Shown one piece after another: positions 23,198 through 62,613 of a stretch of 64,000 bases of DNA; position 1 is the stretch's first letter; the number at the start of each line of letters is the position of its first letter. Position numbers and translations under genes: made by a program. The DNA is from an uncultured Gammaproteobacteria bacterium (lineage in GTDB: Bacteria > Pseudomonadota > Gammaproteobacteria > Steroidobacterales > MnTg04), in the NCBI GenBank assembly GCA_964568075.1, contig CAZMOM010000015.1, forward strand, positions 7,385 through 71,384. The letters are read 5' to 3'. A model generated the notes under the pieces. The model saw nothing but the letters and a program-made list of their open reading frames with translations. It was not told where the DNA came from and did not search any database.

Positions 23198-24871
23198 ATG
23201 TTCAAGTCATTAAGAAATAACCGCTTACTGCCGCTGGCAGCGATATCGGCGGTCTTATGTCTAATGTTACTGACATCCGCTCCCGCAGGCGCCCAGCCCG
23301 TGGAAAGCGATGAGCCTGACCACGTGGTCCTCAACGATGCGGGCGACGAAGTGGCGCCAGGCATGGGCCTTGGACTGGAGGACCCCTTTACGGCTGAGGA
23401 GCTGACCAACCTGGTCGCTCCGGTCGCCCTTTACCCGGACGATCTGCTGGCGATCGTGCTGCCGGCATCCACCTATCCGCTGCAAATAGTGCAGGCCGCA
23501 CGATTCCTCGATGAATTCGAAAACGACAGTTCGCTGAAGCCCGACGAAGACTGGGACGAATCGGTGATTGCCCTGCTCAACTATCCTGAAGTCATCGATT
23601 TATTGAACAGCGATCTGGAATGGACCTGGCAGCTCGGCGAGGCCGTGATTAACCAGGAAACGGAAGTTATCGAGGCCGTCGAAGCGTTTCGCGATCGTGC
23701 GATGCTCGCCGGTAATCTGAAAACCGACGAACACCAGATCGTCAGCGAGGAGGACGGAACCATAGAAATCACTCCTGCGGAGGCGGAAGTGATCTATGTT
23801 CCTTATTACGAACCGGAACGAGTGGTCGTATATCAGCCGTATCCGGTCTACCACTACTATCCCAGGCCTTACCCGCTCTATTACTACCCGTATCCGGTCG
23901 GCTATCACTTTAGCTCCGGTTTCTTCTGGGGAATTACCACCGCCTTTACGATCGGCTGGCATTCGCATCACCTGAATGTGCACTTCTGGGATTACTACAG
24001 CCATCCGTACTACGGGCACACCTACTATCGCAGTCATCATTACTATCACTGGCCGTCGCGTCACTACGGTGGACACCGGTATGCAGGGGACCCACGGCAC
24101 GATGGCGATCATTGGCGACCGAACCGCCGGCATGGCGCCAGGCCCGATCACCGGAGCCCGAGGTTTGACCGCGGTGGCAATGATTTCGTCGCGACATCCG
24201 GTGGCTCGAGAATCGGACGGCCAGGCACGTTCAAACCGCGTCCCGGATTTCGCGGAAAGATCATCAACGCCGTCAATACTCGTTACGAAGGCGCAGACTT
24301 CAGGACGAACGTCAGACCCGCCGTACGGACGACCCGAGACGCCAGGAGACCTGCTCGGCGCGATGCGGTCTGGAAATACAATGCGACACCGAAATCGGAT
24401 TTTGTTCCGCGAAACAGTCGGTCGTCTGGCAAAGTCAGGCGCAGCCGCCCGGACCGGGACCAGGTGACGCGTGACAGTAGCCGCGAGCCGGTCGTTCAGA
24501 ACAGGTCACGCGGCAACCGCGTAAGCCGATCGGCCGTGCCGACAAATCAAGGCCGGCCTGTGAACCGGTCCGACCGCAGATACACAGTGCGGACCAGTCG
24601 GCCGGACTCTGTGGCGAGCGATCGGTCGCGCGGCAGACGTGCCGATGCCGGGGCAAATTCTAGCGGTCGTGTGGCAAGACCCTCACCGCCGCCAAGGCAG
24701 GCCAGGCCCGCCAGCCGGCCGTCCCAAAGCCGGGCGCCGGAAAGCAGGCCCTCGCCTGCTGCAAGCAGGCCCACGCCGCCGCCGCGATCTGAGAGGGGGC
24801 GGAGCGAGAAACACGCCGACCAGAAGGGAACGCGACGCAACGACCGGGGACGAAGCCGCGCGAGAAATTAG
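23198..24871 (+). CDS. DUF3300-family secreted protein with Tyr/His/Pro-rich core and Arg/Ser/Pro-rich tail
   Basis: Signal peptide; DUF3300-like ..LVAPVALYPDDLLAIVLPASTYPLQIVQAARF..; then low-complexity regions. Confidence 0.8.
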   Translation: MFKSLRNNRLLPLAAISAVLCLMLLTSAPAGAQPVESDEPDHVVLNDAGDEVAPGMGLGLEDPFTAEELTNLVAPVALYPDDLLAIVLPASTYPLQIVQAARFLDEFENDSSLKPDEDWDESVIALLNYPEVIDLLNSDLEWTWQLGEAVINQETEVIEAVEAFRDRAMLAGNLKTDEHQIVSEEDGTIEITPAEAEVIYVPYYEPERVVVYQPYPVYHYYPRPYPLYYYPYPVGYHFSSGFFWGITTAFTIGWHSHHLNVHFWDYYSHPYYGHTYYRSHHYYHWPSRHYGGHRYAGDPRHDGDHWRPNRRHGARPDHRSPRFDRGGNDFVATSGGSRIGRPGTFKPRPGFRGKIINAVNTRYEGADFRTNVRPAVRTTRDARRPARRDAVWKYNATPKSDFVPRNSRSSGKVRRSRPDRDQVTRDSSREPVVQNRSRGNRVSRSAVPTNQGRPVNRSDRRYTVRTSRPDSVASDRSRGRRADAGANSSGRVARPSPPPRQARPASRPSQSRAPESRPSPAASRPTPPPRSERGRSEKHADQKGTRRNDRGRSRARN

Positions 24872-24997: not shown

Positions 24998-25420
24998 TCA
25001 GCAGCCGGCGGTACAGCTAGCCAATTCCGCGTCTGCCGTATCCATGCAGCCCTGCAAACTCGATTGATACAGATCCACACACCAGCTTTGTCCACCGCAG
25101 AGTGTGACTCCGGAGTCGAAAGCTGCCTGACATGCCTCGGCGTCGCCGTCGTGACTGGCCTGGCAGTCGGATTCACAGGTCGAAGGCGTCGGGCCCGGGT
25201 CTTCTCCGCCGCCAGACGTATCACCATTCATGCAGCTCTTTTTGGCGTCTTTTGCAGCCACCAGACAGGAAGCCAAAGCGCCACCGTTTAAACTTAAACC
25301 GTGACAACCTTTGACGGCGACCTGGTGCATCGCGTTACACTCGTGCGATCCCGCCTGTGCCGACATCGACAATGTCATCGACAAAGCGAATGCGAATAAA
25401 AGGGAAATAAAGCGTTTCAT
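24998..25420 (-). CDS. secreted 12-cysteine miniprotein (predicted disulfide-stapled helical hairpins)
   Basis: ATG at 25420 with GAGG 9 nt upstream. Signal peptide MKRFISLLFAFALSMTLSMSAQA. There are 12 Cys with regular spacing. The upstream part of the 210-aa ORF-track frame is rejected. Confidence 0.65.
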   Translation of the reverse strand: MKRFISLLFAFALSMTLSMSAQAGSHECNAMHQVAVKGCHGLSLNGGALASCLVAAKDAKKSCMNGDTSGGGEDPGPTPSTCESDCQASHDGDAEACQAAFDSGVTLCGGQSWCVDLYQSSLQGCMDTADAELASCTAGC

Positions 25421-25755: not shown

Positions 25756-27870
25756 TCAGTTTACCGGTGGGCAGGTCCGACCGGCCGGGCAGAACGCCGC
25801 ATCCTTGTCAAATCCCGTTGAATGTGTGTGGCAAGCCGCCGTGCAGGTTTTCCCGTTGTTATGGGTGTTACTCAGGTCATCGTTTTGATGATTACTCGTT
25901 TGCGTATGACAGGTCTCGCACGGGCCATCCATCCAGCCGTCATTATCCTCGTCCGTGTTGGTAAAGGAGTGTGTGTAATCGCTGAGGAAATTAGTGTCGT
26001 TATTATCGGTACCCCTGGATTCGAAAACGACCGGTCGCAGGCTGCCCGTGGACTGAATTGTTCCACCGCTGAGATAAGCCGGCACGCCGGCCAATGAACA
26101 ACCGGGTTGTCCAATGTCGTTGCGGAAAACCGGCGGACAGCGAACGGTAACGATCGGAAGCAGAGAAGACTCAACTTCCCACCGTCCGTTATAGCCATCA
26201 GGACTGGCGCCAAACACGGTAATAATGTCACCGTCGTGAATCCCGGCAGTTGCGACTTGAAACTGATTGATATTGCTGTTGTTGTTGGTCAGAGTGATTT
26301 CAAGAACCGGCGGTGGCCCAACCTCACCACTACCAATATACGTTCCGGGGTCAATATCGACTCCCCGGTAGGTCAGTGTGGTGGCACCGACGCCGTTAAC
26401 GGTAAACACGCCGTTGTAACCTGCCGGATCAATACCGGAAACGGATATAAGGTCATTGATCGCAATCGTGTGAACAACCCCAAAGGTCAGCTCAATCTCA
26501 CCGATGACTTCTGGACCGCCTTTGACATCGGCCCAGGCGGCGTCGGTAACCACAATTGGTGGCGGGTCAGGCGGGGTGACGACCGCCATGCTCTGCACGG
26601 TTTTGACCGAACCGAGGTATTCGACCAGGCCACCAGCCACATTGTTGGTACCTGGATCTGATGCGTCATAGGTAACTTCCGATCTCGTTGGAAGCGCGAT
26701 AGCACCGTTGGTGGTGTACGACCCGGGATCGCTTGGTAGAGAGTAGGAGACATCAAGGCCACTCACGACCGTGACCGTAAAGCGGCCGTTAAAACTTCCC
26801 GGTCCGGCGCTGATGACATCCGATACGACAATCGCATCGCCTCCCTCAAGCAAGTGATTTTCAGCCAGGGTCACGGTTGCAGTGTCTACGGACCAAAAGG
26901 CCGTGGTGATGCCGGTATTGGAAACGGCGGTAATCGTCTTCAGGCCATTAAAAGTGTCTAAATTTGTTTCGGAGACGCCGGTTACGTTGATCGTATCGCC
27001 GACCCGAATCGAAAAGGCATCATGCAGGCTCAACGTCGCGGTGCCGGGGGTGCCAGGCGCCCAGCTTGCGAGCCTGACCTTTGGCCGCTCATGCCAACCG
27101 GTGGATCTGACGAAAGCGAACACACTACTTATATCGGTTGGGTCTGACGATGGCGGCGTGTATGTCGCCGTTATCGGATCCGGATCATCGAAGCACACCC
27201 AACCCGTGGGCGGGTTCGCCTGAAAACCGTTCCAGTCGGTTTCCTTGACCCGGAACTCGCCATCGAACTCGTCATTCGAATTATTGATAATGAGCCGATC
27301 ACCAATCATGATCGACATCAGCGGGCCGTCACCGGCATTAAAGCGAGGCATGGCGATCTGGAGATCGGTGTTGCTATTCGGGCAGGAGGCCGAGGGCCCC
27401 ACACCGATAATTCTTAATGGGGTCGCTACCTTGGCAACACCCGTACCATCCTCGTCGCGCCCAAACAACTTGATGTTGATTCCATCGACCGCGGTGGTCA
27501 CATCGCCGCCAAGGGAGTGCGCATGCGGGGTGCCGCCGTCATAAAGGTGGTTAACCGTATCACCAGGATGTTGCGTATGGCAGACCACGCAACCCATCTC
27601 CCACTTGGGAGTACCGGTGCTGCCGCTGGCCAGGTTGACTGCCGGGTCCACATGCCGGTCGGTAAATTTGGCGGTGCCGGCAGGACCGTGACAGGAATCG
27701 CAAATCAGGTCGAATTCTGCGTTGGTATTCAATGTGCCGCCGGGCGAATTGTGGAGACTGTGACAAAAAACGCAATCCATGGTTTGCCCCAGGCTACTTC
27801 TCGGCACGAAGACAAGCACGACGGCAGCAAGGGCCAAAAGCAGAATATATACAGTGAGCCGCAGTTTCAT
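25756..27870 (-). CDS. secreted multihaem c-type cytochrome with five internal beta-module repeats
   Basis: Signal peptide; CxxCH at aa 33-37, 57-61, 94-98 and 651-655, plus CxxxCH at aa 676-681. Five GD-x-I-x-V...[FY][ND]G repeats lie between aa ~185 and 570. The start overlaps the NHL gene stop (ATGA). Confidence 0.85.
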   Translation of the reverse strand: MKLRLTVYILLLALAAVVLVFVPRSSLGQTMDCVFCHSLHNSPGGTLNTNAEFDLICDSCHGPAGTAKFTDRHVDPAVNLASGSTGTPKWEMGCVVCHTQHPGDTVNHLYDGGTPHAHSLGGDVTTAVDGINIKLFGRDEDGTGVAKVATPLRIIGVGPSASCPNSNTDLQIAMPRFNAGDGPLMSIMIGDRLIINNSNDEFDGEFRVKETDWNGFQANPPTGWVCFDDPDPITATYTPPSSDPTDISSVFAFVRSTGWHERPKVRLASWAPGTPGTATLSLHDAFSIRVGDTINVTGVSETNLDTFNGLKTITAVSNTGITTAFWSVDTATVTLAENHLLEGGDAIVVSDVISAGPGSFNGRFTVTVVSGLDVSYSLPSDPGSYTTNGAIALPTRSEVTYDASDPGTNNVAGGLVEYLGSVKTVQSMAVVTPPDPPPIVVTDAAWADVKGGPEVIGEIELTFGVVHTIAINDLISVSGIDPAGYNGVFTVNGVGATTLTYRGVDIDPGTYIGSGEVGPPPVLEITLTNNNSNINQFQVATAGIHDGDIITVFGASPDGYNGRWEVESSLLPIVTVRCPPVFRNDIGQPGCSLAGVPAYLSGGTIQSTGSLRPVVFESRGTDNNDTNFLSDYTHSFTNTDEDNDGWMDGPCETCHTQTSNHQNDDLSNTHNNGKTCTAACHTHSTGFDKDAAFCPAGRTCPPVN

Positions 27871-28760
27871 GGAGCCAATCCCTGGTTTTCAAATACTTCC
27901 AGTCGACGATTGCGGTTATTGGTCACATGAAGATCGCCGGTCTTACTATCCATAATCAGATCAAGCGGAAGCATCAGCTGCCCCGGACCTTTGCCGATTT
28001 GCCCTATGGTGTTAACGCCTTTTTGCGTTTCCCGATCGAAAACCAGAACCTGGCCAAGCAAACTGTCAACCAGGTAAATCAGGCCCTTTGAATCGACGGT
28101 CAGACCCTGTGGCCGTGAGAAATTGAAATCGCCGACACAGGCAAACCAGCCACACCCGGCCGAACCGTTGATACTCGCCTTAAAGAACCCATCGAAATCG
28201 TAGATGTTGACTGTCCCCGTCGGATTCTGCGGGTCGCCGAAATCACTGACCAGTACCTCTCCCCGGGTCGGGTCCACGGCAATTCCTGTTGGCCGGTAAA
28301 GTGGTATCTGACCGGCTGCCGGCAGAGACCGCAATAATTCTCCGCCTTTGTCGAACACCCAAACCTTCGCCGTTGCCGAGTCACTGACAAAAATCAGTCC
28401 CAGTTTTTTATCTATTGCGATATCGGACGGACGAGCAATATGAAAACTCTCTCCACCGAGGATATATTGGAGACGACCGTTTCTGCTCAGAACATCGACG
28501 GATTGCGTGACTTCATTACCAACAAAAAACCTGCCCCAGCCAAAAGCTACGCTGACTGGTCGTCCGGGAACGCTGATCAGGGTGTCCTCTTTCCTCGGGT
28601 TGGGACTGATCACCACCAGCGCCTGGCGTTTGGAGTCGACTACGACGACGCTGCCCGAAGGCATTTGAGTGATTCGCGTCGGTGACAGAAAGGTTTGTGC
28701 CGTCACGGGCAAGGCGACAAACGAGCAAAGCAAGGCCAGCACCAGGATTCGGGCAGGCAT
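27867..28760 (-). CDS. NHL-repeat six-bladed beta-propeller protein (secreted)
   Basis: ATG at 28760 gives the signal peptide MPARILVLALLCSFVALPVTAQT. Repeated NHL-like blades follow (..GLIFVSDSATAKVWVFD.., ..GEVLVSDFG.., ..GLIYLVDSLLGQVLVFD.., ..GDLHVTNNRNRRLEVFE..). Confidence 0.8.
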   Translation of the reverse strand: MPARILVLALLCSFVALPVTAQTFLSPTRITQMPSGSVVVVDSKRQALVVISPNPRKEDTLISVPGRPVSVAFGWGRFFVGNEVTQSVDVLSRNGRLQYILGGESFHIARPSDIAIDKKLGLIFVSDSATAKVWVFDKGGELLRSLPAAGQIPLYRPTGIAVDPTRGEVLVSDFGDPQNPTGTVNIYDFDGFFKASINGSAGCGWFACVGDFNFSRPQGLTVDSKGLIYLVDSLLGQVLVFDRETQKGVNTIGQIGKGPGQLMLPLDLIMDSKTGDLHVTNNRNRRLEVFENQGLAP

Positions 28761-28977
28761 GGTTTTGCAACGACCCGGCAGTCGCCGACCGCGATGGAAA
28801 ACGGAGAAACTGATTATTGGTTCCTGCGATGTTGACATAATACAAAGCCGCCCGGCGTCCATTTTGTCGAGCCTGTTTCCCTAAGTCTGACAGGCTCCTC
28901 GGCTTATTTGTACCAGCAAAAGCAGGTTTTTTCTGTACGTGAAAGCCGAGATAAAATGTGTGCTAACCGCGTTCCGC

Positions 28978-37081: not shown

Positions 37082-38665
37082 ATGACCAGCGTACTTTCAA
37101 AAATCAGCGTGACCGCCAGACGAGCTGCGCGCTCCCAGGACTGGGCAACAGTCGATGCCTGTGCCAATGAAATTCTGCGGCAGGACCAGACCAGTGCCGA
37201 GGGGTATTTTCTGGCCGGGATCGTGCAAAGGGCCGCGGGCAAACCGGCGAAAGCCGCGCAGGCATTCGAAAAAGCGCTGGCGCTGGACGCAGATCGTTAC
37301 GATGCCGCTGTTGAACTGGCCAATCAGTTTTCGATTGCGCGGCGTAACCGTGACGCGGCGGCGCTCCTCGCAAAATACGAGGAGAAACTAGCTAACAGTC
37401 CGATGTATCTGGATCTGGCCGGTACGGTTTATGTAGATATCGGGATGTCCCAGAGAGCCTGGCCTTTGTATCAGAAAGCCACGACGTTGCAACCGGGCGT
37501 CGATCTGTTTCAGGCGAACCTCGCCTCCTGCGGAGTTTATCTCGGCAAAATCAAGGAAGCCAAGGCTATTTACCGGGCCTTGCTGGAGCGATTTCCAGGT
37601 CACCGGCGAAACCATTACCAGTTGTCTCGCCTGGAGACGGCAACGGACGCCACGCATGTGGAACAGATGAAAGAGATCCTGCGCACCAGCGATGACCCGC
37701 CCGACAAGAATGTGTTCATGTATTACGCGATCGGCAAGGAACTGGAAGACCTGGAACAGTGGGACGAGTCGTTCGAGTATTACCAGAAGGCCGGCGACGC
37801 AGTGACCGGTGTCGCTGCCTATGATATCGCCGCAGACATCGCGGTAATCGACAAGATCATCGACGTTTGTAACGCCGAGTGGCTGGCCGATGAGGCAGGC
37901 AGGGGCCCGGCGGATGACTCGGAAAAGACGCCGATATTTATCGTCGGTCTCCCGCGTACCGGTACGACCTTGGCCGAGCGAATCGTTTCCAGCCATACCC
38001 AGGTCGAAAGTGTCGGTGAGACGCAGTTCCTGCAGATGGTGCTACGACGTGAAAGCGGTATCCACAGTGTCGAGAATATGAACCCGGCGATGGTCGAGGC
38101 CGTGGCGCAGAAAGATATGGGCCTGATCGCCAGAGGATACCTGGACGAAGTGCGGTATAGACTCGGCGATGAGCCGATGTTTATCGACAAGCTGCCGTTC
38201 AATTTCCTGTTTCTCGGATTTATTGCCAAGGCGTATCCGAATGCGCGGATTATTCACCTCGGGCGAAATCCGATGGACGCCTGTTTCTCCATGTACAAGC
38301 AGGTATTTACCTGGGCGTACAAATTTTCCTATTCGCTGGAGGGACTCGGTCAGTACTATGTGGCCCATGATCGATTGCGAAATCATTGGCGGGAAGTCTT
38401 GAAAGATCGCATGGTCGAGGTCGAATACGAATCGCTGGTGACCGATCAGGAAGGTCAGACACGTTTCATGCTGGACAAATTGGGTCTGGAGTTCGAGGAA
38501 GCCTGTCTCGATTTCGATAAGAACAAGGCGCCGAGCGCTACGGCGAGTTCTGTCCAAGTGCGGGAAAAAGTCCACAGCCGTTCCATCAATAAGTGGAGCC
38601 GATACGCCAAACAACTGCAGCCGCTCAGGGAATATTTCGAGAGCGCAGGCATTTCGGTTGATTGA
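37082..38665 (+). CDS. TPR-repeat + sulfotransferase domain protein (paralogue 1)
   Basis: N-terminal ~250 aa of TPR-like repeats. C-terminal sulfotransferase with the PAPS 5'-phosphosulfate loop GLPRTGTTL and the 3'-phosphate motif RNPMDACFSMYKQ. Confidence 0.85.
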   Translation: MTSVLSKISVTARRAARSQDWATVDACANEILRQDQTSAEGYFLAGIVQRAAGKPAKAAQAFEKALALDADRYDAAVELANQFSIARRNRDAAALLAKYEEKLANSPMYLDLAGTVYVDIGMSQRAWPLYQKATTLQPGVDLFQANLASCGVYLGKIKEAKAIYRALLERFPGHRRNHYQLSRLETATDATHVEQMKEILRTSDDPPDKNVFMYYAIGKELEDLEQWDESFEYYQKAGDAVTGVAAYDIAADIAVIDKIIDVCNAEWLADEAGRGPADDSEKTPIFIVGLPRTGTTLAERIVSSHTQVESVGETQFLQMVLRRESGIHSVENMNPAMVEAVAQKDMGLIARGYLDEVRYRLGDEPMFIDKLPFNFLFLGFIAKAYPNARIIHLGRNPMDACFSMYKQVFTWAYKFSYSLEGLGQYYVAHDRLRNHWREVLKDRMVEVEYESLVTDQEGQTRFMLDKLGLEFEEACLDFDKNKAPSATASSVQVREKVHSRSINKWSRYAKQLQPLREYFESAGISVD

Positions 38666-38710: not shown

Positions 38711-40285
38711 GTGAACGACAATCTCTCAAAGGTCAGTGCCATCGCCAGGAGAGCGGCCCAGGCCCGGAACTGGAAGACCGTCAGCGCCTGCGCCGGTAAG
38801 ATACTGCAGCAGGACAGAAAAAGCCCGGAGGGCTATTTCCTGTCCGGGCTGGTGGATAAAGCCGCCAGGCGGGCAGAGAAAGCCAGCGACTCATTTACCA
38901 AAGCGATTACTCTCGACGCCGAGCGTTACGATGCGGCGATAGAGCTGGCCGGTCAGTATGCGATATTGCTACGCCATGACGAGGCGCTCGACTTGCTGCA
39001 GCAATATGAGTCACGCTTGGGTAACAGCCCGCTCTACCTCGACATGGCTGCGACCACCTATACGAGGCTCGGATTGCACGCACAGGCCGGGCCCTTGTAT
39101 CAGAAGGCCAACGAGCTGCAACCAGGCATCGATCTGTTTCAGGCAAACCTCGCCGCTTGTTCCGTGTATCTGGGTAAGATCGAAGAAGCGAAAGCCATCT
39201 ATCGAACTCTGCTGGAGCGACACCCTGACCATCAGAGAAATCATTACCAGTTGTCTCGCCTGGAAAGGGCGAGTGACACGGCGCACGTGGAGCAGATGCA
39301 GAAAAGTCTTGATTCGACCAAGCTGCCGGCGGAAAAAAACATCTTCATGTATTACGCGATCGGCAAGGAGCTTGAGGATCTGGAGCGATGGCAGGAGGCG
39401 TTTCACTATTACAAACTGGCCGGCGATGCGGTGGCCGGCGTGGCCAACTACGATGTCGGCAACGATATCGAGGTGATCGACAAGATTATCGAGGTTTGCG
39501 ATGCCGACTGGCTGTCCAGCGGGAATGCAAGACCACGATCGGACGACCCACGAAAAACCCCGATTTTTATTGTGGGCCTTCCACGTACGGGTACGACCTT
39601 GACCGAGCGAATCGTTTCCAGCCACTCACAGGTCGAAAGCGCGGACGAAACATTTTTCATGCAGATACTGGTTCAGCGTGTCAGCGGAACCAATAGCAGA
39701 GAAAACATCAGCCCGGCGATAATCGCGGCGGCGGCGAAACAAGATATTGCACGCATTGCCAAAGGGTATCTGGATGCGGTGGATTACAGACTCAGCGACC
39801 GACCAATGTTCATTGACAAACTTCCTGAGAATTTCTTGTATCTCGGATTCATAGCCAAAGCCTTTCCCGATGCGCACATTATCCACCTCCGGCGAAATCC
39901 GCTGGATGCCTGCTTCGCCATGTATAAACAATCTTTTTTCAAGTTCGCCTACACGCTGGAAAGTCTGGGTAAATATTACGTGGCTTACGATCGTCTTCAT
40001 CATCACTGGCGAGAGGTTCTAAAGGATCGCCTGATCGAAATCGAATACGAATCGCTGGTAGCGGATCAGGAGGGCCAGACCAGAGCGCTGCTGGACAAGC
40101 TGGGTCTGGATTTCGAGCAAGCGTGCCTCGATTTCGACCAGAACAAGGCCCCCAGCGCCACCGCGAGTTCGGTGCAGGTACGCGAAAAGGTCCATAGCCG
40201 ATCGGTCAACAAGTGGAAAAATTTCGCCAGCGAATTGCAGCCTCTGAAGGATCAGCTTGAAAAAGCCGGCATCTCAGTGAACTAG
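38711..40285 (+). CDS. TPR-repeat + sulfotransferase domain protein (paralogue 2)
   Basis: GTG start. Full-length collinear paralogue of 37082-38665 (GLPRTGTTL, RNPLDACFAMYKQ, identical ..NKAPSATASSVQVREKVHSRS..). Confidence 0.85.
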   Translation: MNDNLSKVSAIARRAAQARNWKTVSACAGKILQQDRKSPEGYFLSGLVDKAARRAEKASDSFTKAITLDAERYDAAIELAGQYAILLRHDEALDLLQQYESRLGNSPLYLDMAATTYTRLGLHAQAGPLYQKANELQPGIDLFQANLAACSVYLGKIEEAKAIYRTLLERHPDHQRNHYQLSRLERASDTAHVEQMQKSLDSTKLPAEKNIFMYYAIGKELEDLERWQEAFHYYKLAGDAVAGVANYDVGNDIEVIDKIIEVCDADWLSSGNARPRSDDPRKTPIFIVGLPRTGTTLTERIVSSHSQVESADETFFMQILVQRVSGTNSRENISPAIIAAAAKQDIARIAKGYLDAVDYRLSDRPMFIDKLPENFLYLGFIAKAFPDAHIIHLRRNPLDACFAMYKQSFFKFAYTLESLGKYYVAYDRLHHHWREVLKDRLIEIEYESLVADQEGQTRALLDKLGLDFEQACLDFDQNKAPSATASSVQVREKVHSRSVNKWKNFASELQPLKDQLEKAGISVN

Positions 40286-50664: not shown

Positions 50665-51633
50665 CTACTCCACCGGCCAGATCGTAAATTTGTCCAGCTC
50701 TTCGTTCAGCCCTTTCCTGATGAGCGCCGGCGTATACAGCCGATCCGGCTTGCGAAGATCCTCATAGCAGGGCACATCCGGATTGCGGTAAATGATGCCA
50801 ACCGGCAGGTGCTCGCTGGTGCCGACAATTCGTCTGGCCTCGACAAGATCGGCAGGGTCGTGCTGATCCTGATGCCGGTAGACGCGCGACAGCGCGGGCG
50901 ATAGCTCGATGCCGTTTTCGTGGGTCAGTATCAGCAGGCGATCCGGATTTTGTATGCACGGCTCCCAGCGATCCTCCAGGAACTCGGGACATCGCTGCAG
51001 GATACGTATAAAGGAGAATCCGTGATGCTTGTGCGCCGCGGAGATAATTTTGTAAAGCAGCTCCGGAATCCAATCGACAACCTGGGCGACGAAAGACAAA
51101 TTCGACATACCGAGTGTCGCCTGCAAGGGATCAAACGCCTCGAGATCCGAGCCACGCGGTGTCGTGTTGCTGCGCGTTCCTTTCGGTGACGTCGGTGATA
51201 CCTGATTCTTGGTCAGACCATAGATGTTGTTGTCGTGCATCATGACGGTCATGTTCATGTTGTAACGCGTCGCATGTACCCAATGCGCGGTGCCGATACT
51301 GCAGCAATCACCGTCGCCCATATTGACAAATACGTGCAGGTCCGGCCGGCGCATTCTAATGCCTTCCGCAACAGGGAGCGCGCGACCATGCAGCCCGTGG
51401 AAGCCGTAGGTGCCCATGTAGTGAGGAAAGCGGCTGGAACAGCCGATACCCGAAACAAATACGGTTTTCTCCAGCGGCAGTTGCTCATCGCGGCAAACCC
51501 GCTGCACGGCGGCAAGGATGGCGAGATCGCCGCAACCGGTACACCAGCGCGGCACACGCCCTGCGTAGTCCTCGAGGCTGTGTTCTTCCTGGCCTGCGTG
51601 TCGTAAGAATTCCGTAGCCCGAACTACCATCAC
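50665..51633 (-). CDS. korB: 2-oxoacid:ferredoxin oxidoreductase beta subunit (TPP-binding)
   Basis: ..WCTGCGDLAIL.., ..GIGCSSRF.., and the TPP motif ..NMGDGDCCSIG...N. 4-bp overlap with korA. Confidence 0.92.
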   Translation of the reverse strand: MMVVRATEFLRHAGQEEHSLEDYAGRVPRWCTGCGDLAILAAVQRVCRDEQLPLEKTVFVSGIGCSSRFPHYMGTYGFHGLHGRALPVAEGIRMRRPDLHVFVNMGDGDCCSIGTAHWVHATRYNMNMTVMMHDNNIYGLTKNQVSPTSPKGTRSNTTPRGSDLEAFDPLQATLGMSNLSFVAQVVDWIPELLYKIISAAHKHHGFSFIRILQRCPEFLEDRWEPCIQNPDRLLILTHENGIELSPALSRVYRHQDQHDPADLVEARRIVGTSEHLPVGIIYRNPDVPCYEDLRKPDRLYTPALIRKGLNEELDKFTIWPVE

Positions 51634-53510
51634 TGCAACCTCTCACGAATTACGCGTTCTACCGTGCCGGGTTTTATCGGTTGTTCACCCACTTCGCCCC
51701 AGCAGTCGATATCGACCAGACAACGTGCCCGCAACAACCAGGCGAGATTCGAGTAGCGGCGATTTTCCTCATCGATCAATTCGTCATCCAGAGAATCCGC
51801 CCAGTTATTCTCGACCGCCAGGACCTTGTCGAATCGCTGTAGTATCTCTTTGATGCCGGACGCCAGCGGCTGCAGGATTCTGAGGTGCAACGACGACACC
51901 TTGTGGCCATCGGCGCGTACCCTTTGTACGGCCTCTTCGATCGCGCCCCGTGTGCTGCCCCAGCCGACGACGAGCAGTTCACCCTTGTCATCACCAAACA
52001 CCGGCGGCGTTTTGATAGTTTTTTGCAGCGCCGCGAGCTTCAGACTACGGTGCCTGATGCCTTCCTTGTTGATTTGCAGGTCGTAGGCTACGCAGCTCCG
52101 GCGATCATGTGCGAGGCCCGTCACTGTGTGCATACCGTTTGGCTGCCCTGGGATGACACGCTGCCGCTGGCCGCTGCGCTGATCCCAGTCGTACGGAAGA
52201 TCTCCATTGACCACGGGGCTTTGATCGACAGGCGGCGCCAGCCAGTCGTCGCTGGCCTCCGGTCGCGGAAACGGTTGTTGCGCTGTTGCGAGACTGGCAT
52301 CGGACAGCAGCACAACGACTGTGTTGAAGGTCTCTGCTATTTTTCGGGCGGTGATGACTGAATAAAAACAGTCCTCGATATCGCTTGCGGCCATAACCAC
52401 TTTCGGGGCATCTCCGTGACTGCCGAAACAGGCGGTCAGCAGGTCGCCCTGTTCGGCTTTCGTCGGTTGCCCGGTGGACGGGCCACCACGCTGGACATCG
52501 ATCACCACCAGCGGTATCTCCGCCATTACGGCAAGACCGATACATTCCTGCTTTAACGAGTAACCCGGCCCCGACGTGATCGTCAACGCACATTTGCCCG
52601 CATAGGATGCGCCAATCGCGAACGCACATGCAGCGATCTCATCCTCAGCCTGGTGCACGACGCCGCCGACCTTTTCGAAAACGTCGCACAGATAATGTGA
52701 TGCCGAGGTGGCCGGCGTGATGGGGTACATCGCACAGACTTCCATACCCGAGGCCATGACACCGAGAGCCATAGAAGTGTTTCCGTTGACAACGATGTTC
52801 GGTTCCTTGGGCGGCGTCGCCTGTATCTTGAACTTGATGTCCAGGTTGTGCTCGGCCCATGCGAAACCCGCGTTGAGCAGTTTTTGGTTGGCGGAGATGA
52901 CAAGATCGCCTTTCTTGCCGAATATGAATCGGATCTGCTCGCGGGCCGCATCCATGTCCAGACTGTAAACACTGCTCAGCAGGCCGAGTACAAACATGTT
53001 CTTGCCGCGGCGAGCATCGCTGACGACCTTGAGGCACTCGACTTCCATGGGAATCTCGTAAACCTTGAATCCGCGCTCGATCAGTTCGTCGTACACGCTG
53101 ACGTACGACGCCGCAATCGACGGGCCATCGTCGCTGCGCCACTTGTCTTCGAGGAGAATAATGCTGCCGGGTTTGAGTTCGTCGGCCCGCAATCGACCGA
53201 GAAGCACCTGATCATTGAATGCCACCGTGAGATCGACTTCGTCGCCGCCATTGGTTACCCGGTGGTTTGCTACGCGAATTCGATTTCCGCTGGCCCCGTC
53301 GATGCTGCGTGCCGGCGGCTGAATTTCAGCCGGGATGATTTCCACGGTCCAGATTCCGTAGCCCAGCCGTGCCGCGATAGCGCCAAAGGACTGACCGCAT
53401 TTCTGCGCCCCTTCACCTGAGTCGCTGAGTATCTCGACGATGTGTTCGTCAATCTCCATCGCCGGCTTCCTGCCCGGCGTTGTCATCCCTTTCTGTCTCG
53501 TTACCGGCAT
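51630..53510 (-). CDS. korA: 2-oxoacid:ferredoxin oxidoreductase alpha subunit
   Basis: 626 aa, typical KorA (..GEGAQKCGQSF.., ..AMYPITPATS.., ..AEDEIAA..). An alternative start at 53459 (ATG with AGGAAG upstream) is possible. Confidence 0.92.
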   Translation of the reverse strand: MPVTRQKGMTTPGRKPAMEIDEHIVEILSDSGEGAQKCGQSFGAIAARLGYGIWTVEIIPAEIQPPARSIDGASGNRIRVANHRVTNGGDEVDLTVAFNDQVLLGRLRADELKPGSIILLEDKWRSDDGPSIAASYVSVYDELIERGFKVYEIPMEVECLKVVSDARRGKNMFVLGLLSSVYSLDMDAAREQIRFIFGKKGDLVISANQKLLNAGFAWAEHNLDIKFKIQATPPKEPNIVVNGNTSMALGVMASGMEVCAMYPITPATSASHYLCDVFEKVGGVVHQAEDEIAACAFAIGASYAGKCALTITSGPGYSLKQECIGLAVMAEIPLVVIDVQRGGPSTGQPTKAEQGDLLTACFGSHGDAPKVVMAASDIEDCFYSVITARKIAETFNTVVVLLSDASLATAQQPFPRPEASDDWLAPPVDQSPVVNGDLPYDWDQRSGQRQRVIPGQPNGMHTVTGLAHDRRSCVAYDLQINKEGIRHRSLKLAALQKTIKTPPVFGDDKGELLVVGWGSTRGAIEEAVQRVRADGHKVSSLHLRILQPLASGIKEILQRFDKVLAVENNWADSLDDELIDEENRRYSNLAWLLRARCLVDIDCWGEVGEQPIKPGTVERVIRERLQ

Positions 53511-59040: not shown

Positions 59041-62000
59041 TTAGCCGGCGGGCTGAAATTTCGCAGGTTCCTGCTTGGCCATGTGCTCGTAGGTCTGCCA
59101 GCGTAACTCCACGAGTTCCTGTGCACTCTGCATTAACTTTTCCGCTTCTTCTGGATTGGTTCGCGTCAAAATCTTGTAACGCATCTCGTTGTAAGCGTAT
59201 TCCTTGAGTGGAATGCTCGGGCGTGGCGAATCCAGGACCAGCGGTTTCTTGCCCGCTGCACGCAGCGCCGGGTTGTAACGAATCAGCGGCCAGTAGCCGC
59301 TGGCCGCCGCCAGCTTTTGCTGTCTGAGGCCATCGGCCATGTCATAGCCATGGGCGATGCAGTGGCTGTAGGCGAGAATCAGCGAAGGACCCTGATACTC
59401 CTCCGCCTCACGCATGGCGAGCAGAGTCTGCTGTGAATTTGCCCCCATCGCGACCTGGGCGACATAGACGTTACCATACGAGATCGCCTGCAAGGCCAGA
59501 TCTTTTTTGCCGCTGCGTTTACCGGCGGATGCGAACCGGGCGGATGCGCCCAGCGGAGTCGCCTTGGACATCTGACCGCCCGTATTGGAATACACCTCGG
59601 TATCGAGCACCAGTACGTTGACATTGCGGCCGCCGGCCAATACATGATCCAGTCCACCGGCTCCGATGTCATAAGCCCAGCCGTCACCGCCCACCAGCCA
59701 GATACTGCGGCGGACCAGGTGATCGACGATGGAAAGCAACGCGGCAGCTTTATCGTTATGGTCCTGGTCGCACATTCGACGCAACTGGATTTTGAGGCGT
59801 GCGACTCTTCGCCGCTGGGCTCGAATCTCGCTGCCGACGCGCTGACTGGCGTTGACGAGTTCATCGGCGAACTGCGCACCGATCTGCAGCTCAAGTTCCA
59901 TGACGAGCCGCTTCGCGATTTTCATGTGGTGGTCGGCGGCGATGCGCATACCGAGACCAAACTCGGCGTTGTCCTCGAACAGGGAATTCGACCAGGCTGG
60001 TCCGCTGCCCTCCCTGTTCTTACTCCACGGAGTGGTCGGCAGGTTGCCGCCGAAGATGGACGAACAACCGGTGGCATTGGCGACCAGCAGTCGCGGACCA
60101 AACAGCTGTGACAGAAGCTTTATATAAGGAGTCTCGCCGCAGCCGGCGCAGGCGCTGGAGAATTCGAACAGCGGCTCCAGGAACTGGGCGCCGCGAACCG
60201 AGGAAAAATCCACTTTCGCACGATCGCTGAACTGAAGGCTCTCGAAAAACTCGACATTGGTCTTGCCCTGTTCGAGCAGCGGGGCCTTATCGGTCATATT
60301 GATCGCGCGCACCTGTTCATCGTCGGGACTTCGCACGGGGCAGGCATCGACACAGAGGTTGCAACCGGTACAGTCCTCCGGATACACCTGCAGCGTATAG
60401 CGCGTCTCGGGAAAACCGCGGGCGCTGATCGGCGCGGATTGAAATCCCTGCGGCGCATCATCCAGTACGCTCTCGTGATAAAACTTGGCGCGGATGACGC
60501 TGTGCGGGCAGACGAAGCCGCAATTACCGCACTGTATGCATAGATCTGGCTCCCAGGCAGGTACGCGGTCCGAGACATTGCTCTTCTCCCAGCGTGCTGT
60601 GCCGCTGGGGAAAGTGCCGTCGACCGGCAGCTTGCTGACGGGCAGGTCGTCGCCGTGGCCGCGCATCATTGCTGCCGTGACCTCGCGCACGAACCGGGGC
60701 GCCTCGCTCGGCACAACCTCGTCGAGCGGACGCGTGCTGCTGATGGTGCCGGTGATCTCGACTGCGCACAGATGATCGAGCGCCGCATCAACGGCCGCGA
60801 AGTTCTGATCGATGACGGTTTGACCCTTGGCGCGGTAGGTTTTTTCGATCGATTTCTTGATCTGCCGGATAGCTTCAGCACGCGGCAGCACGTCGGACAG
60901 GGCGAAGAAGCAGGCTTGCATGACCGTGTTGATCCGTTCGCCCATACCGGCTTCCCGCGCGACGCTGGAGGCATCGATAACATGGAACCTGATACCACGA
61001 ATCACGATCGCTTCCTGCACCGGCTGCGGCAGCTTGTCCCAGACCTCGTCCGCTGAATAAGGACTGTTGAGCAGGAATACCGAGCCGGCGGCAGCGTTTC
61101 GCAGCACTTCGATTTTTTCGATCAGGTTAAATTGGTGACAGGCGATGAAGTTCGCCGACTGGATCAGATAGGGCGCGTGGATCTGCTCGGGCCCGAAGCG
61201 CAGATGCGAGACAGTCTGTGAACCTGATTTCTTCGAGTCGAAGACGAAGTAGCCCTGGCAGTAGAGATCCGTATTCTCGCCGATGATCTTGATGCTGTTC
61301 TTGTTGGCGCCGACCGTACCATCGGAACCCAGGCCGAAGAACAACGCCCGGGTGACCTCATCGCTCTCGATCTCGAATTTCGGGTCGTAGTCGAGGCTCG
61401 TGTGGGTAACGTCGTCGTGGATCCCGATCGTGAAATGATTTTTTGGTTGCGGCTTGCCGAGTTCATCGAAAATCGCCTTGACCATGGCCGGCGTGAATTC
61501 CTTCGATGACAAGCCATAGCGACCACCGATTACCTTTGGCATCGACTCCAGGCGGCCGTCGCCCGCCGCTTCGGCCAGTACCGTAACCACGTCCTGGTAT
61601 AGCGGCTCCCCGCTGGCCCCGATTTCCTTGGTTCGATCGAGCACCGCGATCGATCGGGCCGCACCGGGAATAGCCGCCAGCAGGTGCTCGGCCGAGAACG
61701 GGCGATAAAGTCTGACGTTGACCAGGCCCAGCCCCTGTTCCGGTAACGCGTCGATCGTCTGCATCACGGTGTCGGCGCCGGAGCCCATGAGAATGATGAT
61801 GCGCTTCGCCTCCGGGTCGCCGTGGTAGTCGAACAGCCCGTACTGCCGGCCCGTCAGTTCGGCGAAGCGGTCCATCGTCTGTTGCACGATTCGCGGAGTC
61901 ACTGCGTAGAACCGGTTGACGCTCTCACGCGCCTGAAAGTAGACGTCCGGGTTCTGAGCGGTGCCGCGGATGAACGGATTATCGGGGTTCAGCGCACGCT

Positions 62001-62613
62001 TCCGGTGCTCATAGACCAGTTCCGCGTCGATCATCGCGCGTATTTGATCGACCGACAGCAAGTTAATTTTGCTGATCTCGTGCGAGGTTCGGAATCCGTC
62101 GAAGAAATGAATGAACGGAACGCGGGCCTCGAGCGTCGCGGCATGACTGATCAGGGCCAGGTCCTGGGCGGCCTGCACGGATGAAGCCGCGAGCAAACCG
62201 AAACCCGTCGTGCGGGCGGCCATGACATCCTGGTGATCACCGAAGATGGACAAGGCCTGCGCCGCCAGGGACCGCGATGCGACATGGAAAACCGCCGAGG
62301 TCAGTTCCCCCGCGATTTTGTACATATTCGGCAGCATCAGCATCAGGCCCTGTGAGGCCGTGAAGGTCGTGGTTAATGCACCGGTCTGTAACGCCCCGTG
62401 CGCGGTACCTGCGGCGCCACCCTCGCTTTGCATCTGAATGATGTCGGGGACATGACCCCAGATATTCTCCTTACCACTTGCGGACCATACGTCGGCCAGC
62501 TCAGCCATCGGTGAAGAGGGCGTAATAGGATAGATCGAGCAAATCTCACTGACCGAGTAGGCGACCCGCGCGACCGCCTCGTTGGCATCGAGTGTGCGTT
62601 TCTCGGTCATCAC
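59041..62613 (-). CDS. nifJ: pyruvate:ferredoxin (flavodoxin) oxidoreductase, single-polypeptide type
   Basis: 1190 aa. Domain order I-VII with two 4Fe-4S motifs (CIQCGNCGFVCP, CTGCNLCVDACP) and a TPP motif (GGDGWAYDIG...NTGGQ). Confidence 0.95.
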   Translation of the reverse strand: MMTEKRTLDANEAVARVAYSVSEICSIYPITPSSPMAELADVWSASGKENIWGHVPDIIQMQSEGGAAGTAHGALQTGALTTTFTASQGLMLMLPNMYKIAGELTSAVFHVASRSLAAQALSIFGDHQDVMAARTTGFGLLAASSVQAAQDLALISHAATLEARVPFIHFFDGFRTSHEISKINLLSVDQIRAMIDAELVYEHRKRALNPDNPFIRGTAQNPDVYFQARESVNRFYAVTPRIVQQTMDRFAELTGRQYGLFDYHGDPEAKRIIILMGSGADTVMQTIDALPEQGLGLVNVRLYRPFSAEHLLAAIPGAARSIAVLDRTKEIGASGEPLYQDVVTVLAEAAGDGRLESMPKVIGGRYGLSSKEFTPAMVKAIFDELGKPQPKNHFTIGIHDDVTHTSLDYDPKFEIESDEVTRALFFGLGSDGTVGANKNSIKIIGENTDLYCQGYFVFDSKKSGSQTVSHLRFGPEQIHAPYLIQSANFIACHQFNLIEKIEVLRNAAAGSVFLLNSPYSADEVWDKLPQPVQEAIVIRGIRFHVIDASSVAREAGMGERINTVMQACFFALSDVLPRAEAIRQIKKSIEKTYRAKGQTVIDQNFAAVDAALDHLCAVEITGTISSTRPLDEVVPSEAPRFVREVTAAMMRGHGDDLPVSKLPVDGTFPSGTARWEKSNVSDRVPAWEPDLCIQCGNCGFVCPHSVIRAKFYHESVLDDAPQGFQSAPISARGFPETRYTLQVYPEDCTGCNLCVDACPVRSPDDEQVRAINMTDKAPLLEQGKTNVEFFESLQFSDRAKVDFSSVRGAQFLEPLFEFSSACAGCGETPYIKLLSQLFGPRLLVANATGCSSIFGGNLPTTPWSKNREGSGPAWSNSLFEDNAEFGLGMRIAADHHMKIAKRLVMELELQIGAQFADELVNASQRVGSEIRAQRRRVARLKIQLRRMCDQDHNDKAAALLSIVDHLVRRSIWLVGGDGWAYDIGAGGLDHVLAGGRNVNVLVLDTEVYSNTGGQMSKATPLGASARFASAGKRSGKKDLALQAISYGNVYVAQVAMGANSQQTLLAMREAEEYQGPSLILAYSHCIAHGYDMADGLRQQKLAAASGYWPLIRYNPALRAAGKKPLVLDSPRPSIPLKEYAYNEMRYKILTRTNPEEAEKLMQSAQELVELRWQTYEHMAKQEPAKFQPAG

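Follow-up and report, generated by a model that had tools for sequence, protein, structure and literature searches.

A gene pair for an NHL propeller and a multihaem cytochrome

We analysed a 64-kb stretch of DNA from an uncultured gammaproteobacterium (contig CAZMOM010000015.1), here called the window throughout its 64,000 nucleotides (nt). Two genes on its minus strand encode an NHL-type β-propeller and, directly downstream, a c-type cytochrome of 704 amino acids (aa), which is the target of this study. An earlier reading of the same DNA, made from the letters and their open reading frames (ORFs) and called the original prediction below, had described a secreted six-bladed propeller coupled to a cytochrome with haem motifs at its two ends and five small β-module repeats between them. 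Both ORFs, and the ATGA in which the stop codon of the propeller gene overlaps the start codon of the cytochrome gene, were present as described (Table 1).

The propeller protein matched Pfam NHL (PF01436) over four scored repeats with 77.5 bits (cut-off 20; E-value 4e-22) and DUF5128, '6-bladed beta-propeller', with 46.8 bits (E-value 3e-12). Five blades were recognised by pattern and the sixth by eye, which agrees with the six-bladed architecture that had been predicted. Comparison with the signal peptides of orthologues suggests that translation probably starts at Met35 of the 331-aa ORF, at nt 28760, which is also the end coordinate given in the original prediction. Read from Met35, the protein has a Sec signal peptide (MPARILVLALLCSFVALPVTA) and the mature N-terminus QTFLSPTRI. 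At related loci, the partner propellers share F(V)SPTR(I)A at their mature N-termini, behind an AQA-type cleavage site. No conserved Cys follows the signal peptide across nine partner NHL proteins, so these are not lipoproteins. Promoter and terminator scans performed no better than on shuffled sequence and set no limits to the operon.

The haem motifs of the cytochrome, CVFCH (aa 33-37), CDSCH (57-61), CVVCH (94-98), CETCH (651-655) and CTAACH (676-681), lie exactly where they had been placed, and no CXXCH was found between residues 99 and 650. Among 5.8 billion proteins searched, 22 full-length homologues were recovered, sharing 49-72% identity with the target (57-72% over the MAFFT alignment). 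They come from metagenomes and a few metagenome-assembled genomes (MAGs), one of them labelled 'Gammaproteobacteria bacterium'. When the representative genomes of GTDB species were scanned with the target family, no relative was confirmed, and all known members lie on metagenome contigs or in a few MAGs. All 15 Cys and His residues of the motifs (four CXXCH and one CX3CH) are invariant across the 22 homologues. The same is true of six non-motif His (40, 73, 101, 661, 670 and 683), which are candidate distal ligands, so that the conserved attachment motifs are accompanied by enough conserved candidate ligands for one per haem, as in c-type multihaem cytochromes. Because the motifs are invariant at 49-72% identity, this conservation argues that they are not chance occurrences. 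Three Cys pairs (163/226, 578/591 and 694/700) are also invariant and, like the Sec-type signals that both proteins carry, fit an oxidising location outside the cytoplasm. The signal-peptide region itself is variable in sequence among the homologues. In line with the original prediction, the target is very probably a haem-c protein that is secreted and co-produced with the propeller. In scans of Pfam and NCBIfam, the window cytochrome passed no family threshold and its central 450 aa were unmatched. We also observed an invariant NTDxDxDG...DG motif directly N-terminal of haem 4 (aa 638-646, nt 25933-25959, minus strand), which looks like a DxDxDG-type calcium loop.

The haem-bearing ends match two halves of a compact pentahaem core

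A profile search of 1.84 billion cluster representatives with the repeat module also recovered cytochromes of only 194-219 aa that carry five haem motifs. Their landmarks follow one another in a fixed order: three CxxCH motifs, GxNIKL..AKIATP, VxFESRG, an acidic DxDxDG-like loop, CExCH and Cx2-3CH-x-H..GF. Without its residues 153-609, the window protein aligned end to end with these small cytochromes. BLAST of the intact window protein gave two collinear segments, one for the C-terminal half (E-value 2e-19; 50% identity to residues 132-205 of P0064) and one for the N-terminal half (E-value 1e-11). In the small cytochromes a short loop (13 aa in P0080) connects the strands that flank this site, where the window protein has 457 aa. 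Both halves thus match the small-core family collinearly, and the core of the window protein is split rather than contiguous. Since the two ends are collinear with compact homologues joined by a short loop, the alignments imply that they must be two halves of one compact pentahaem domain, with the array leaving and re-entering it at one point. The original prediction had placed haems only at the two ends; its motif positions stand, whereas the picture of two separate clusters gives way to one core with the repeats inserted in a loop.

The six candidate distal His of the target are kept in the small-core family too, and so is the NTDxDxDG...DG motif. The CTAACH of haem 5 had been noted as atypical; CX3CH proved to be an ordinary variant at this haem, alternating with CXXCH across the small-core family. 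Within the target family, 33 of 98 columns of the N-half and 40 of 95 columns of the C-half are invariant. Conservation reached 0.80-0.85 in the core, 0.78 in module 1 (M1) and 0.83 in module 5 (M5), and fell to 0.51-0.68 in the distal parts of the array. M1 and M5 directly adjoin the core, and their core-like conservation is consistent with the insertion architecture.

Profile searches of the PDB with the target family gave 7tfs as the best match, at an E-value of only 0.25. With the small core they returned only generic paired-CXXCH stretches (of 6r2q, OmcE and OmcS), and no template covered the core. The chain 6r2q_A is labelled 'Cystathionine beta-synthase' in the PDB sequence set that was searched, and its aligned sequence is plainly that of a multihaem cytochrome, which we take to be MtrA of the MtrCAB complex.

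The insertion contains FCCH-like β-barrel modules

The five repeat strings quoted in the original prediction correspond to aa 189-208, 290-313, 343-366, 471-491 and 546-566 (nt 26173-27306). We examined their homology by profile-profile comparison (HHalign) of sub-alignments covering M1 (149-229), M2 (262-336), M3 (319-392), M4 (439-518) and M5 (519-580). M2, M3 and M4 were mutually homologous with probabilities of 96-99% and E-values of 4e-9 to 3e-18 (M2-M3 98%, M2-M4 96%, M4-M3 99%). M5 matched M4 at 97% (E-value 1e-10) and the pooled profile at 96%. M1 was marginal, at 49% to M3 (E-value 2e-4) and 67% to the pooled module profile (E-value 5e-5), the latter over 29 columns at the GD-x-I...F-D-G-x-F-x-V heart of the repeat. 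Control comparisons between modules and haem ends stayed at or below 32%. Of the five copies predicted, four are therefore clearly homologous modules, and M1 is a probable divergent copy. The short segment X between M3 and M4 sits elsewhere in P0022.

In the profile search the ~75-aa module was frequent in haem-free proteins of up to 6,134 aa. Nine of ten such array proteins matched Pfam E1_FCCH, eight of them above the gathering cut-off and with up to 59 bits against 29.5, and in all nine the module hidden Markov model (HMM) marked the same segments as E1_FCCH. An AlphaFold 2 (AF2) model of M3, built from a deep module alignment, had a predicted local distance difference test score (pLDDT) of 90.2 and a predicted template modelling score (pTM) of 0.77. 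When the M3 model was compared with the PDB using Foldseek, the best 26 matches were all to UBA6 or UBA1 over the ~75-residue module. The matches included the isolated mouse FCCH domain 2v31 at a template modelling (TM) score of ~0.7 (query-normalised); the endosialidase of phage phi92 appeared lower in the list. Against a viral structure library the model reached TM scores of 0.80-0.85 to fibres, baseplate wedges and tail fibres. In the PHROG collection, the window protein matched phrog_9998 at M4 (E-value 1.6e-8), and array proteins matched virion structural protein and tail-fibre families. A sequence profile search of the PDB with the module gave nothing significant. By homology to bona fide E1_FCCH members and by a modelled six-stranded closed β-barrel fold, this transitive HMM evidence and the confident fold model place the modules with the β-barrels of E1-FCCH domains and phage fibres. 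The resemblance to FCCH that the original prediction had noted is thus real.

Table 1. Features of the propeller-cytochrome locus, in window coordinates
Feature	Residues (aa)	Position (nt)	Strand	Basis
NHL six-bladed β-propeller gene	331	27867..28862	(-)	Longest ORF; Pfam NHL and DUF5128
ATGA overlap of NHL stop and cytochrome start		27867..27870	(-)	Read directly in the sequence
Pentahaem c-type cytochrome with inserted β-barrel array	704 plus stop	25756..27870	(-)	
Signal peptide, hydrophobic core VYILLLALAAVVLVFV then SLG/Q	1-27	27790..27870	(-)	Sequence; predicted cleavage
N-half of pentahaem core, haems 1-3, outgoing hairpin strand GINIKLFGRDEDGTGVAKVATP	28-152	27415..27789	(-)	Collinear with residues ~1-128 of small cytochromes
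Haem 1, CVFCH		27760-27774	(-)	
Haem 2, CDSCH		27688-27702	(-)	
Haem 3, CVVCH		27577-27591	(-)	
Haem-free insertion, ~457 aa, no CXXCH	153-609	26044..27414	(-)	Absent from 194-219-aa homologues
Module 1, divergent FCCH-like barrel (probable), invariant Cys163/Cys226	153-229	27184..27414	(-)	HHalign 49% / 67%
Module 2, FCCH-like barrel	262-318	26917..27087	(-)	HHalign
Module 3, FCCH-like barrel, the one modelled	319-392	26695..26916	(-)	AF2 and Foldseek
Segment X, three short strands that may partly duplicate a module tail	393-438	26557..26694	(-)	HHalign 21%, E-value 1e-3, to C-terminal strands of M3
Module 4, FCCH-like barrel	439-518	26317..26556	(-)	HHalign 99% to M3; phrog_9998, E-value 1.6e-8
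Module 5, FCCH-like barrel, then invariant Cys578/Cys591	519-580	26131..26316	(-)	HHalign
C-half of pentahaem core, return strand RPVVFESRG, NTDxDxDG motif, Cys694/Cys700	610-704	25756..26043	(-)	BLAST to P0064
Haem 4, CETCH		25906-25920	(-)	
Haem 5, CTAACH		25828-25845	(-)	

The propeller and the pentahaem core are a widespread gene pair

We examined the distribution of the gene pair, a check that the original prediction had proposed. An NHL gene lies upstream of the cytochrome, with the ATGA overlap on its start, in all nine distinct family loci that have enough flanking DNA, so that the two genes are co-conserved. The partner propellers of the eight other loci are 54-67% identical to the window NHL protein, in contrast to only 24-29% for the other NHL proteins of the same clusters, and these identities indicate that the partner is a dedicated orthologue with its own orthogroup. 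The small ORFs downstream of the cytochrome are not homologous between family loci and are therefore placed outside the unit.

When a single genome of each GTDB species was searched with the small-core alignment, at least 492 loci were confirmed. They occur in Nitrospirota, Myxococcota, Acidobacteriota, Aminicenantes, Gemmatimonadota, Planctomycetota, KSB1, Bacteroidota, Desulfobulbaceae and Proteobacteria. Across the 79 of these loci that were retrieved, a same-strand NHL gene was directly upstream of the uninterrupted core in 46, with the exact 4-nt overlap in 18. The distribution suggests that the NHL gene and the pentahaem core form an ancient, widespread two-gene module. It does not bear out the earlier remark that such pairings are familiar from metal-reducing Deltaproteobacteria, as the pair spans Nitrospirota, Acidobacteriota, Gemmatimonadota, Planctomycetota, Myxococcota and Proteobacteria.

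Longer relatives of the small core have an intact N-terminal core to which 6-17 haems are added C-terminally. Against this background the target family stands out as a rare variant, with five haems only and a divided core. Haem domains and the FCCH-like module were combined in only ~10 clusters among the 150 best representatives. P0030 and P0087 carry FCCH-like modules on 11-haem cytochromes, in which, as in the two fusions and the L081 cytochrome described next, the number and position of the modules differ from those of the target; P0030 has no NHL partner at its locus. P0026 and P0032 are fusions of 924-977 aa with 12-13 motifs in total, in which a target-like array unit is preceded by a second, small pentahaem core and by more haems. 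In an uncultured Pseudomonadota MAG (L081, 8829-17168), an NHL gene, a 1082-aa 12-haem cytochrome, a further NHL gene, a 431-aa 12-haem cytochrome and an OmcE-like tetrahaem cytochrome lie together. The 1082-aa cytochrome carries both the core and an FCCH-like module, making this locus an independent instance of FCCH modules on a cytochrome of extracellular electron transfer (EET). Among distant homologues, P0034 has an extra FCCH-like module after haem 3 (E-value 5e-12), a second insertion site. A similar insert after haem 3 was seen by eye in P0037, and the 80-aa insert at this position in P0019 (L012, 2692-5055) gave no match to the module HMM (E-value 1.7).

Related loci resemble clusters for extracellular electron transfer

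An OmcE-like protein is encoded within 10 kb in five of the nine family loci. In L011 and L006 the OmcE-like gene adjoins the target, and L004, L007 and L013 encode 12-haem OmcE-like proteins. L011, which holds the closest homologue (72% identity), has the order NHL, target, OmcE-like, NHL, lipoprotein pentahaem cytochrome and a 646-aa unannotated protein. Its 225-aa tetrahaem cytochrome matched the OmcE structures 7tfs (E-value 2e-21) and 9yuq (E-value 5e-24). The minimal omcE cluster consists of two multihaem cytochromes, two propellers, OmcE and a large barrel; such clusters occur in Desulfuromonadia and other phyla, and their propellers are described as β-propeller lipoproteins (bioRxiv 10.1101/2025.10.22.684050). 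By predicted products, the content of L011 matches this composition, with the 646-aa protein as the candidate barrel. The comparison of the target with the accessory cytochromes of Geobacter omcE clusters is one of gene content.

Candidates for the second cytochrome, the second propeller and the barrel are present in L004, L007 and L011. The unannotated proteins of 646-670 aa at these loci (L004 1895-3907, L007 1891-3888, L011 10983-12923) lie after a DmsE-like lipoprotein pentahaem cytochrome, which some of them overlap. These proteins matched no family and are candidates for the putative large β-barrel of omcE-type clusters. Around the small cores, a strict OmcE-like tetrahaem cytochrome was nearby in 14 of the 79 loci.

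The 12-haem proteins (551-578 aa; L004 4968-6704, L007 4952-6688, L013 110-1765) scored best on the OmcE-like model, with E-values of 1e-27 to 5e-36, suggesting that each chain contains OmcE-like units in tandem. Those of L004 and L007 have their own upstream NHL gene with a 4-nt overlap; in L013 the contig ends within the upstream region. In L004 (10862-13626), genes for a tetrahaem cytochrome, a DsrO-like iron-sulphur protein (E-value 2e-57) and a DsrP-like membrane subunit (E-value 3e-123) lie directly downstream of the target and may form a quinol-linked feeder module. The same gene order, recognised by order only, occurs in L014 (4562-6033).

Surroundings of the gene pair in the window

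Further neighbours in the window include an MFS transporter, a Cys-rich small protein, a DUF3300 protein, GDH and 2-oxoacid:ferredoxin oxidoreductases. The GDH neighbour had its named MAG matches in Acidiferrobacterales and Woeseiaceae, at 73-76% identity for this single gene. The Cys-rich protein (24998-25420, minus strand) is a secreted protein of 140 aa with the signal MKRFISLLFAFALSMTLSMSAQA and 13 Cys, encoded ~330 nt downstream of the cytochrome. It matched no Pfam or NCBIfam family and shows no homology to the small ORFs that lie downstream at other family loci. Convergent with its gene is that of the DUF3300 protein (23198-24871, plus strand; E-value 4e-53), which has a ~270-aa C-terminal tail extremely rich in Arg, Ser and Pro.

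At 37082-38665 and 38711-40285 (plus strand) lie tandem paralogous ORFs, the first with TPR and sulfotransferase regions and the second with a similar N-terminus. On the minus strand, 50665-53510 encodes the α subunit of a 2-oxoacid:ferredoxin oxidoreductase (51630-53510) and an adjacent ORF, and 59041-62613 encodes a 1190-aa PFOR-type enzyme in the same window as paa and β-oxidation genes. The predicted 2-oxoacid:ferredoxin oxidoreductases hint at a facultatively anaerobic metabolism, not that of a strict aerobe.

Discussion

We propose that the propeller and the five-haem cytochrome form a secreted, probably 1:1 complex for electron transfer, and that this pair is part of a widespread two-gene module that would accompany the machinery of EET. 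Haems 1-3 of the N-terminal part and haems 4-5 of the C-terminal part would fold into one compact pentahaem wire, as in the ~200-aa relatives. A surface hairpin loop of this core would have been expanded by ~457 haem-free residues, forming five tandem barrels of the FCCH/phage-fibre type. Electrons would pass through the core, and the looped-out, non-conducting array may serve as a spacer, or as an adhesion or docking element holding the haem core to a mineral, a surface polymer or a partner protein. Candidate partners are an OmcE-type filament or a porin-cytochrome complex. We give this reading, of a conducting core with a haem-free spacer or docking array, a probability of roughly 0.55. It builds on what the sequences show: invariant haem motifs, a core interrupted by an insertion, modules of assigned homology and fold class, two co-conserved and overlapping genes, and relatives that are associated with EET clusters. 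The attachment of haem to the motifs, the formation of the complex and its cellular location belong to the proposal, as do the direction in which electrons would flow and any binding role of the array.

Several observations weigh against this reading. The functional part of it rests on the context of relatives; the pair stands alone in the window, and likewise in L001 and L012. Within the 64 kb there is no other CXXCH protein, porin, ccm or OmcE-like gene, in keeping with the earlier remark that no porin, ccm or mtr-type partner is nearby. Of an MtrCAB-type conduit, the window has no porin and only a sub-threshold match of the cytochrome to DmsE (21 against 192 bits); of an omcE-type cluster, it has no OmcE-like tetrahaem cytochrome, large barrel, second cytochrome or second propeller. 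Its neighbours are instead catabolic (paa, β-oxidation and TonB receptors). An OmcE-like gene within reach is absent in four of the nine family loci, and the partner propeller of the window has no lipobox, unlike the propeller lipoproteins of omcE clusters. Some sequence and structure comparisons were also weak. E1_FCCH (PF16190) gave no match on the window protein at an E-value of 1 or below (cut-off 29.5 bits), and the Foldseek E-values of the module were only 3e-3 to 0.1, so that the fold assignment rests on the HMM link, the TM scores and the ranking. The full-length AF2 model, made from the 22-sequence alignment, had a pLDDT of 48.5 and was set aside for fold search and geometry. Paired_CXXCH_1 (PF09699 / TIGR01905) scored 10.8 bits (E-value 0.41) on the window cytochrome, below its cut-off of 20.6. 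The predicted resemblance to the doubled-CXXCH domain consequently holds at the level of the family, where the truncated homologues P0024 and P0025 and small-core proteins carry it, and not for the window protein itself.

Other explanations account for parts of these data. The pair could be an enzyme with its redox partner, in which a catalytic propeller (compare lactonase/SGL, arylesterase and PAL-type enzymes) works on a substrate, for example a polymer, that the array binds, while the cytochrome shuttles electrons. The tight translational coupling suggests a fixed stoichiometry, the pair is alone among catabolic genes in the window, L001 and L012, and the window propeller has weak matches to SGL (E-value 0.005) and Arylesterase (E-value 0.11). 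These matches are far under threshold, however, and in most other loci the same pairing lies inside multi-cytochrome EET clusters, which makes an enzymatic role improbable. About equally doubtful is a role in filaments, in which the pentahaem core would itself polymerise, or would cap, initiate or anchor an OmcE-type filament with the FCCH-like array displayed outside. The OmcE-like genes and 12-haem proteins at five family loci speak for it, as does a short-stretch, weak similarity of the core profile to OmcE and OmcS (E-values 3e-8 to 3e-6). In siphovirus tail tubes an FCCH domain faces outward, decorating the outside of the polymer (PMC13576161), and no candidate for a tip or stopper has come to light in omcE operons (bioRxiv 10.1101/2025.10.22.684050). 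On the other side, the similarity to OmcE and OmcS covers only generic paired-CXXCH stretches, the family profile reached 7tfs only at the E-value of 0.25 given above, and the four family loci with no OmcE-like gene within reach do not fit. A more specific version, similarly tentative, is that the array-bearing cytochrome and its dedicated propeller are the missing adaptor (tip, anchor or decorated subunit) of OmcE-type filaments, with phage-fibre-like adhesion barrels grafted onto a haem wire so that electrons would be directed to a particular surface, be it a mineral, a polymer or a partner cell.

Two further readings concern what the target protein is. The order of features along its primary sequence would fit two separate haem clusters, with three haems in an N-domain and two in a C-domain, held ~450 residues apart by a passive repeat scaffold. 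We rejected this arrangement because the ends are collinear with the halves of a compact pentahaem core of 194-219 aa, and a 450-aa haem-free gap would not conduct electrons; we regard it as very unlikely. Least credible is a phage-derived structural or adhesin protein with vestigial CXXCH motifs. The modules do match phage virion-structural and fibre proteins, but all haem motifs and distal His are invariant over the 22 homologues and the chromosomal pairing with NHL is conserved. A prophage origin was rejected because no phage genes surround the locus. The proposed electron-transfer unit with a looped-out array is the best-supported reading.

NHL propellers recur beside multihaem cytochromes in loci for electron uptake, metal reduction and nanowires, where their role has only been guessed. 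The present results suggest that the usual partner of the propeller is a specific and very widespread pentahaem core, usually encoded immediately downstream and often with overlapping stop and start codons. This core tolerates a loop insertion of 457 aa, and one uncultured gammaproteobacterial lineage has filled the loop with barrels of the phage-fibre type. The association of NHL proteins with cytochromes was already known as a genomic pattern, and the FCCH-like barrel as a fold. We found no description of a dedicated pentahaem core as the partner of the propeller, above all of its interruption by an FCCH-type array. The pair offers a defined two-protein unit, and cores with and without the array provide a natural comparison for the roles of the propeller and the array. 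Structural work on OmcE filaments has so far left adhesion and tip functions unassigned, and the array-bearing cytochrome is a candidate for either.

The target shares features with several known systems. Its modules resemble the FCCH barrels of E1 and of phage fibres, baseplate wedges, tail-tube decorations and endosialidase in being ~75-aa all-β barrels (TM 0.7 to E1 and 0.80-0.85 to phage proteins); here they lie inside a cytochrome, and no catalytic role is implied. Secreted NHL proteins stand beside EET multihaem cytochromes in Desulfovibrio ferrophilus (DFE_0448-0451 and DFE_0461-0465), Ca. Tenderia (uetH/I/J) and Geobacter metallireducens (Gmet_0556-0558), where the propeller has only been proposed to stabilise cytochrome complexes. 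Those cytochromes, which we liken to the target by description only, have 4-27 haems and no reported β-barrel array. The literature on Gmet_0556-0558 and GSU0615-0617 offers genetic hints only, and no sequence link to the present family is established. With the omcE cluster, the related loci L011 and L006 share a target with its NHL protein, a second NHL protein, a lipoprotein pentahaem cytochrome and an OmcE homologue; the window differs in having none of the other components, and an FCCH-like array is not described in that work. The target is placed as a variant of the unnamed, uncharacterised NHL-associated pentahaem cytochromes of ~200 aa (such as P0064, P0080 and P0058), which have the same order of motifs and an upstream NHL gene, often with the 4-nt overlap. 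Their core is uninterrupted, whereas the target has kept all five haem motifs in a core that is split by a haem-free insertion of 457 aa.

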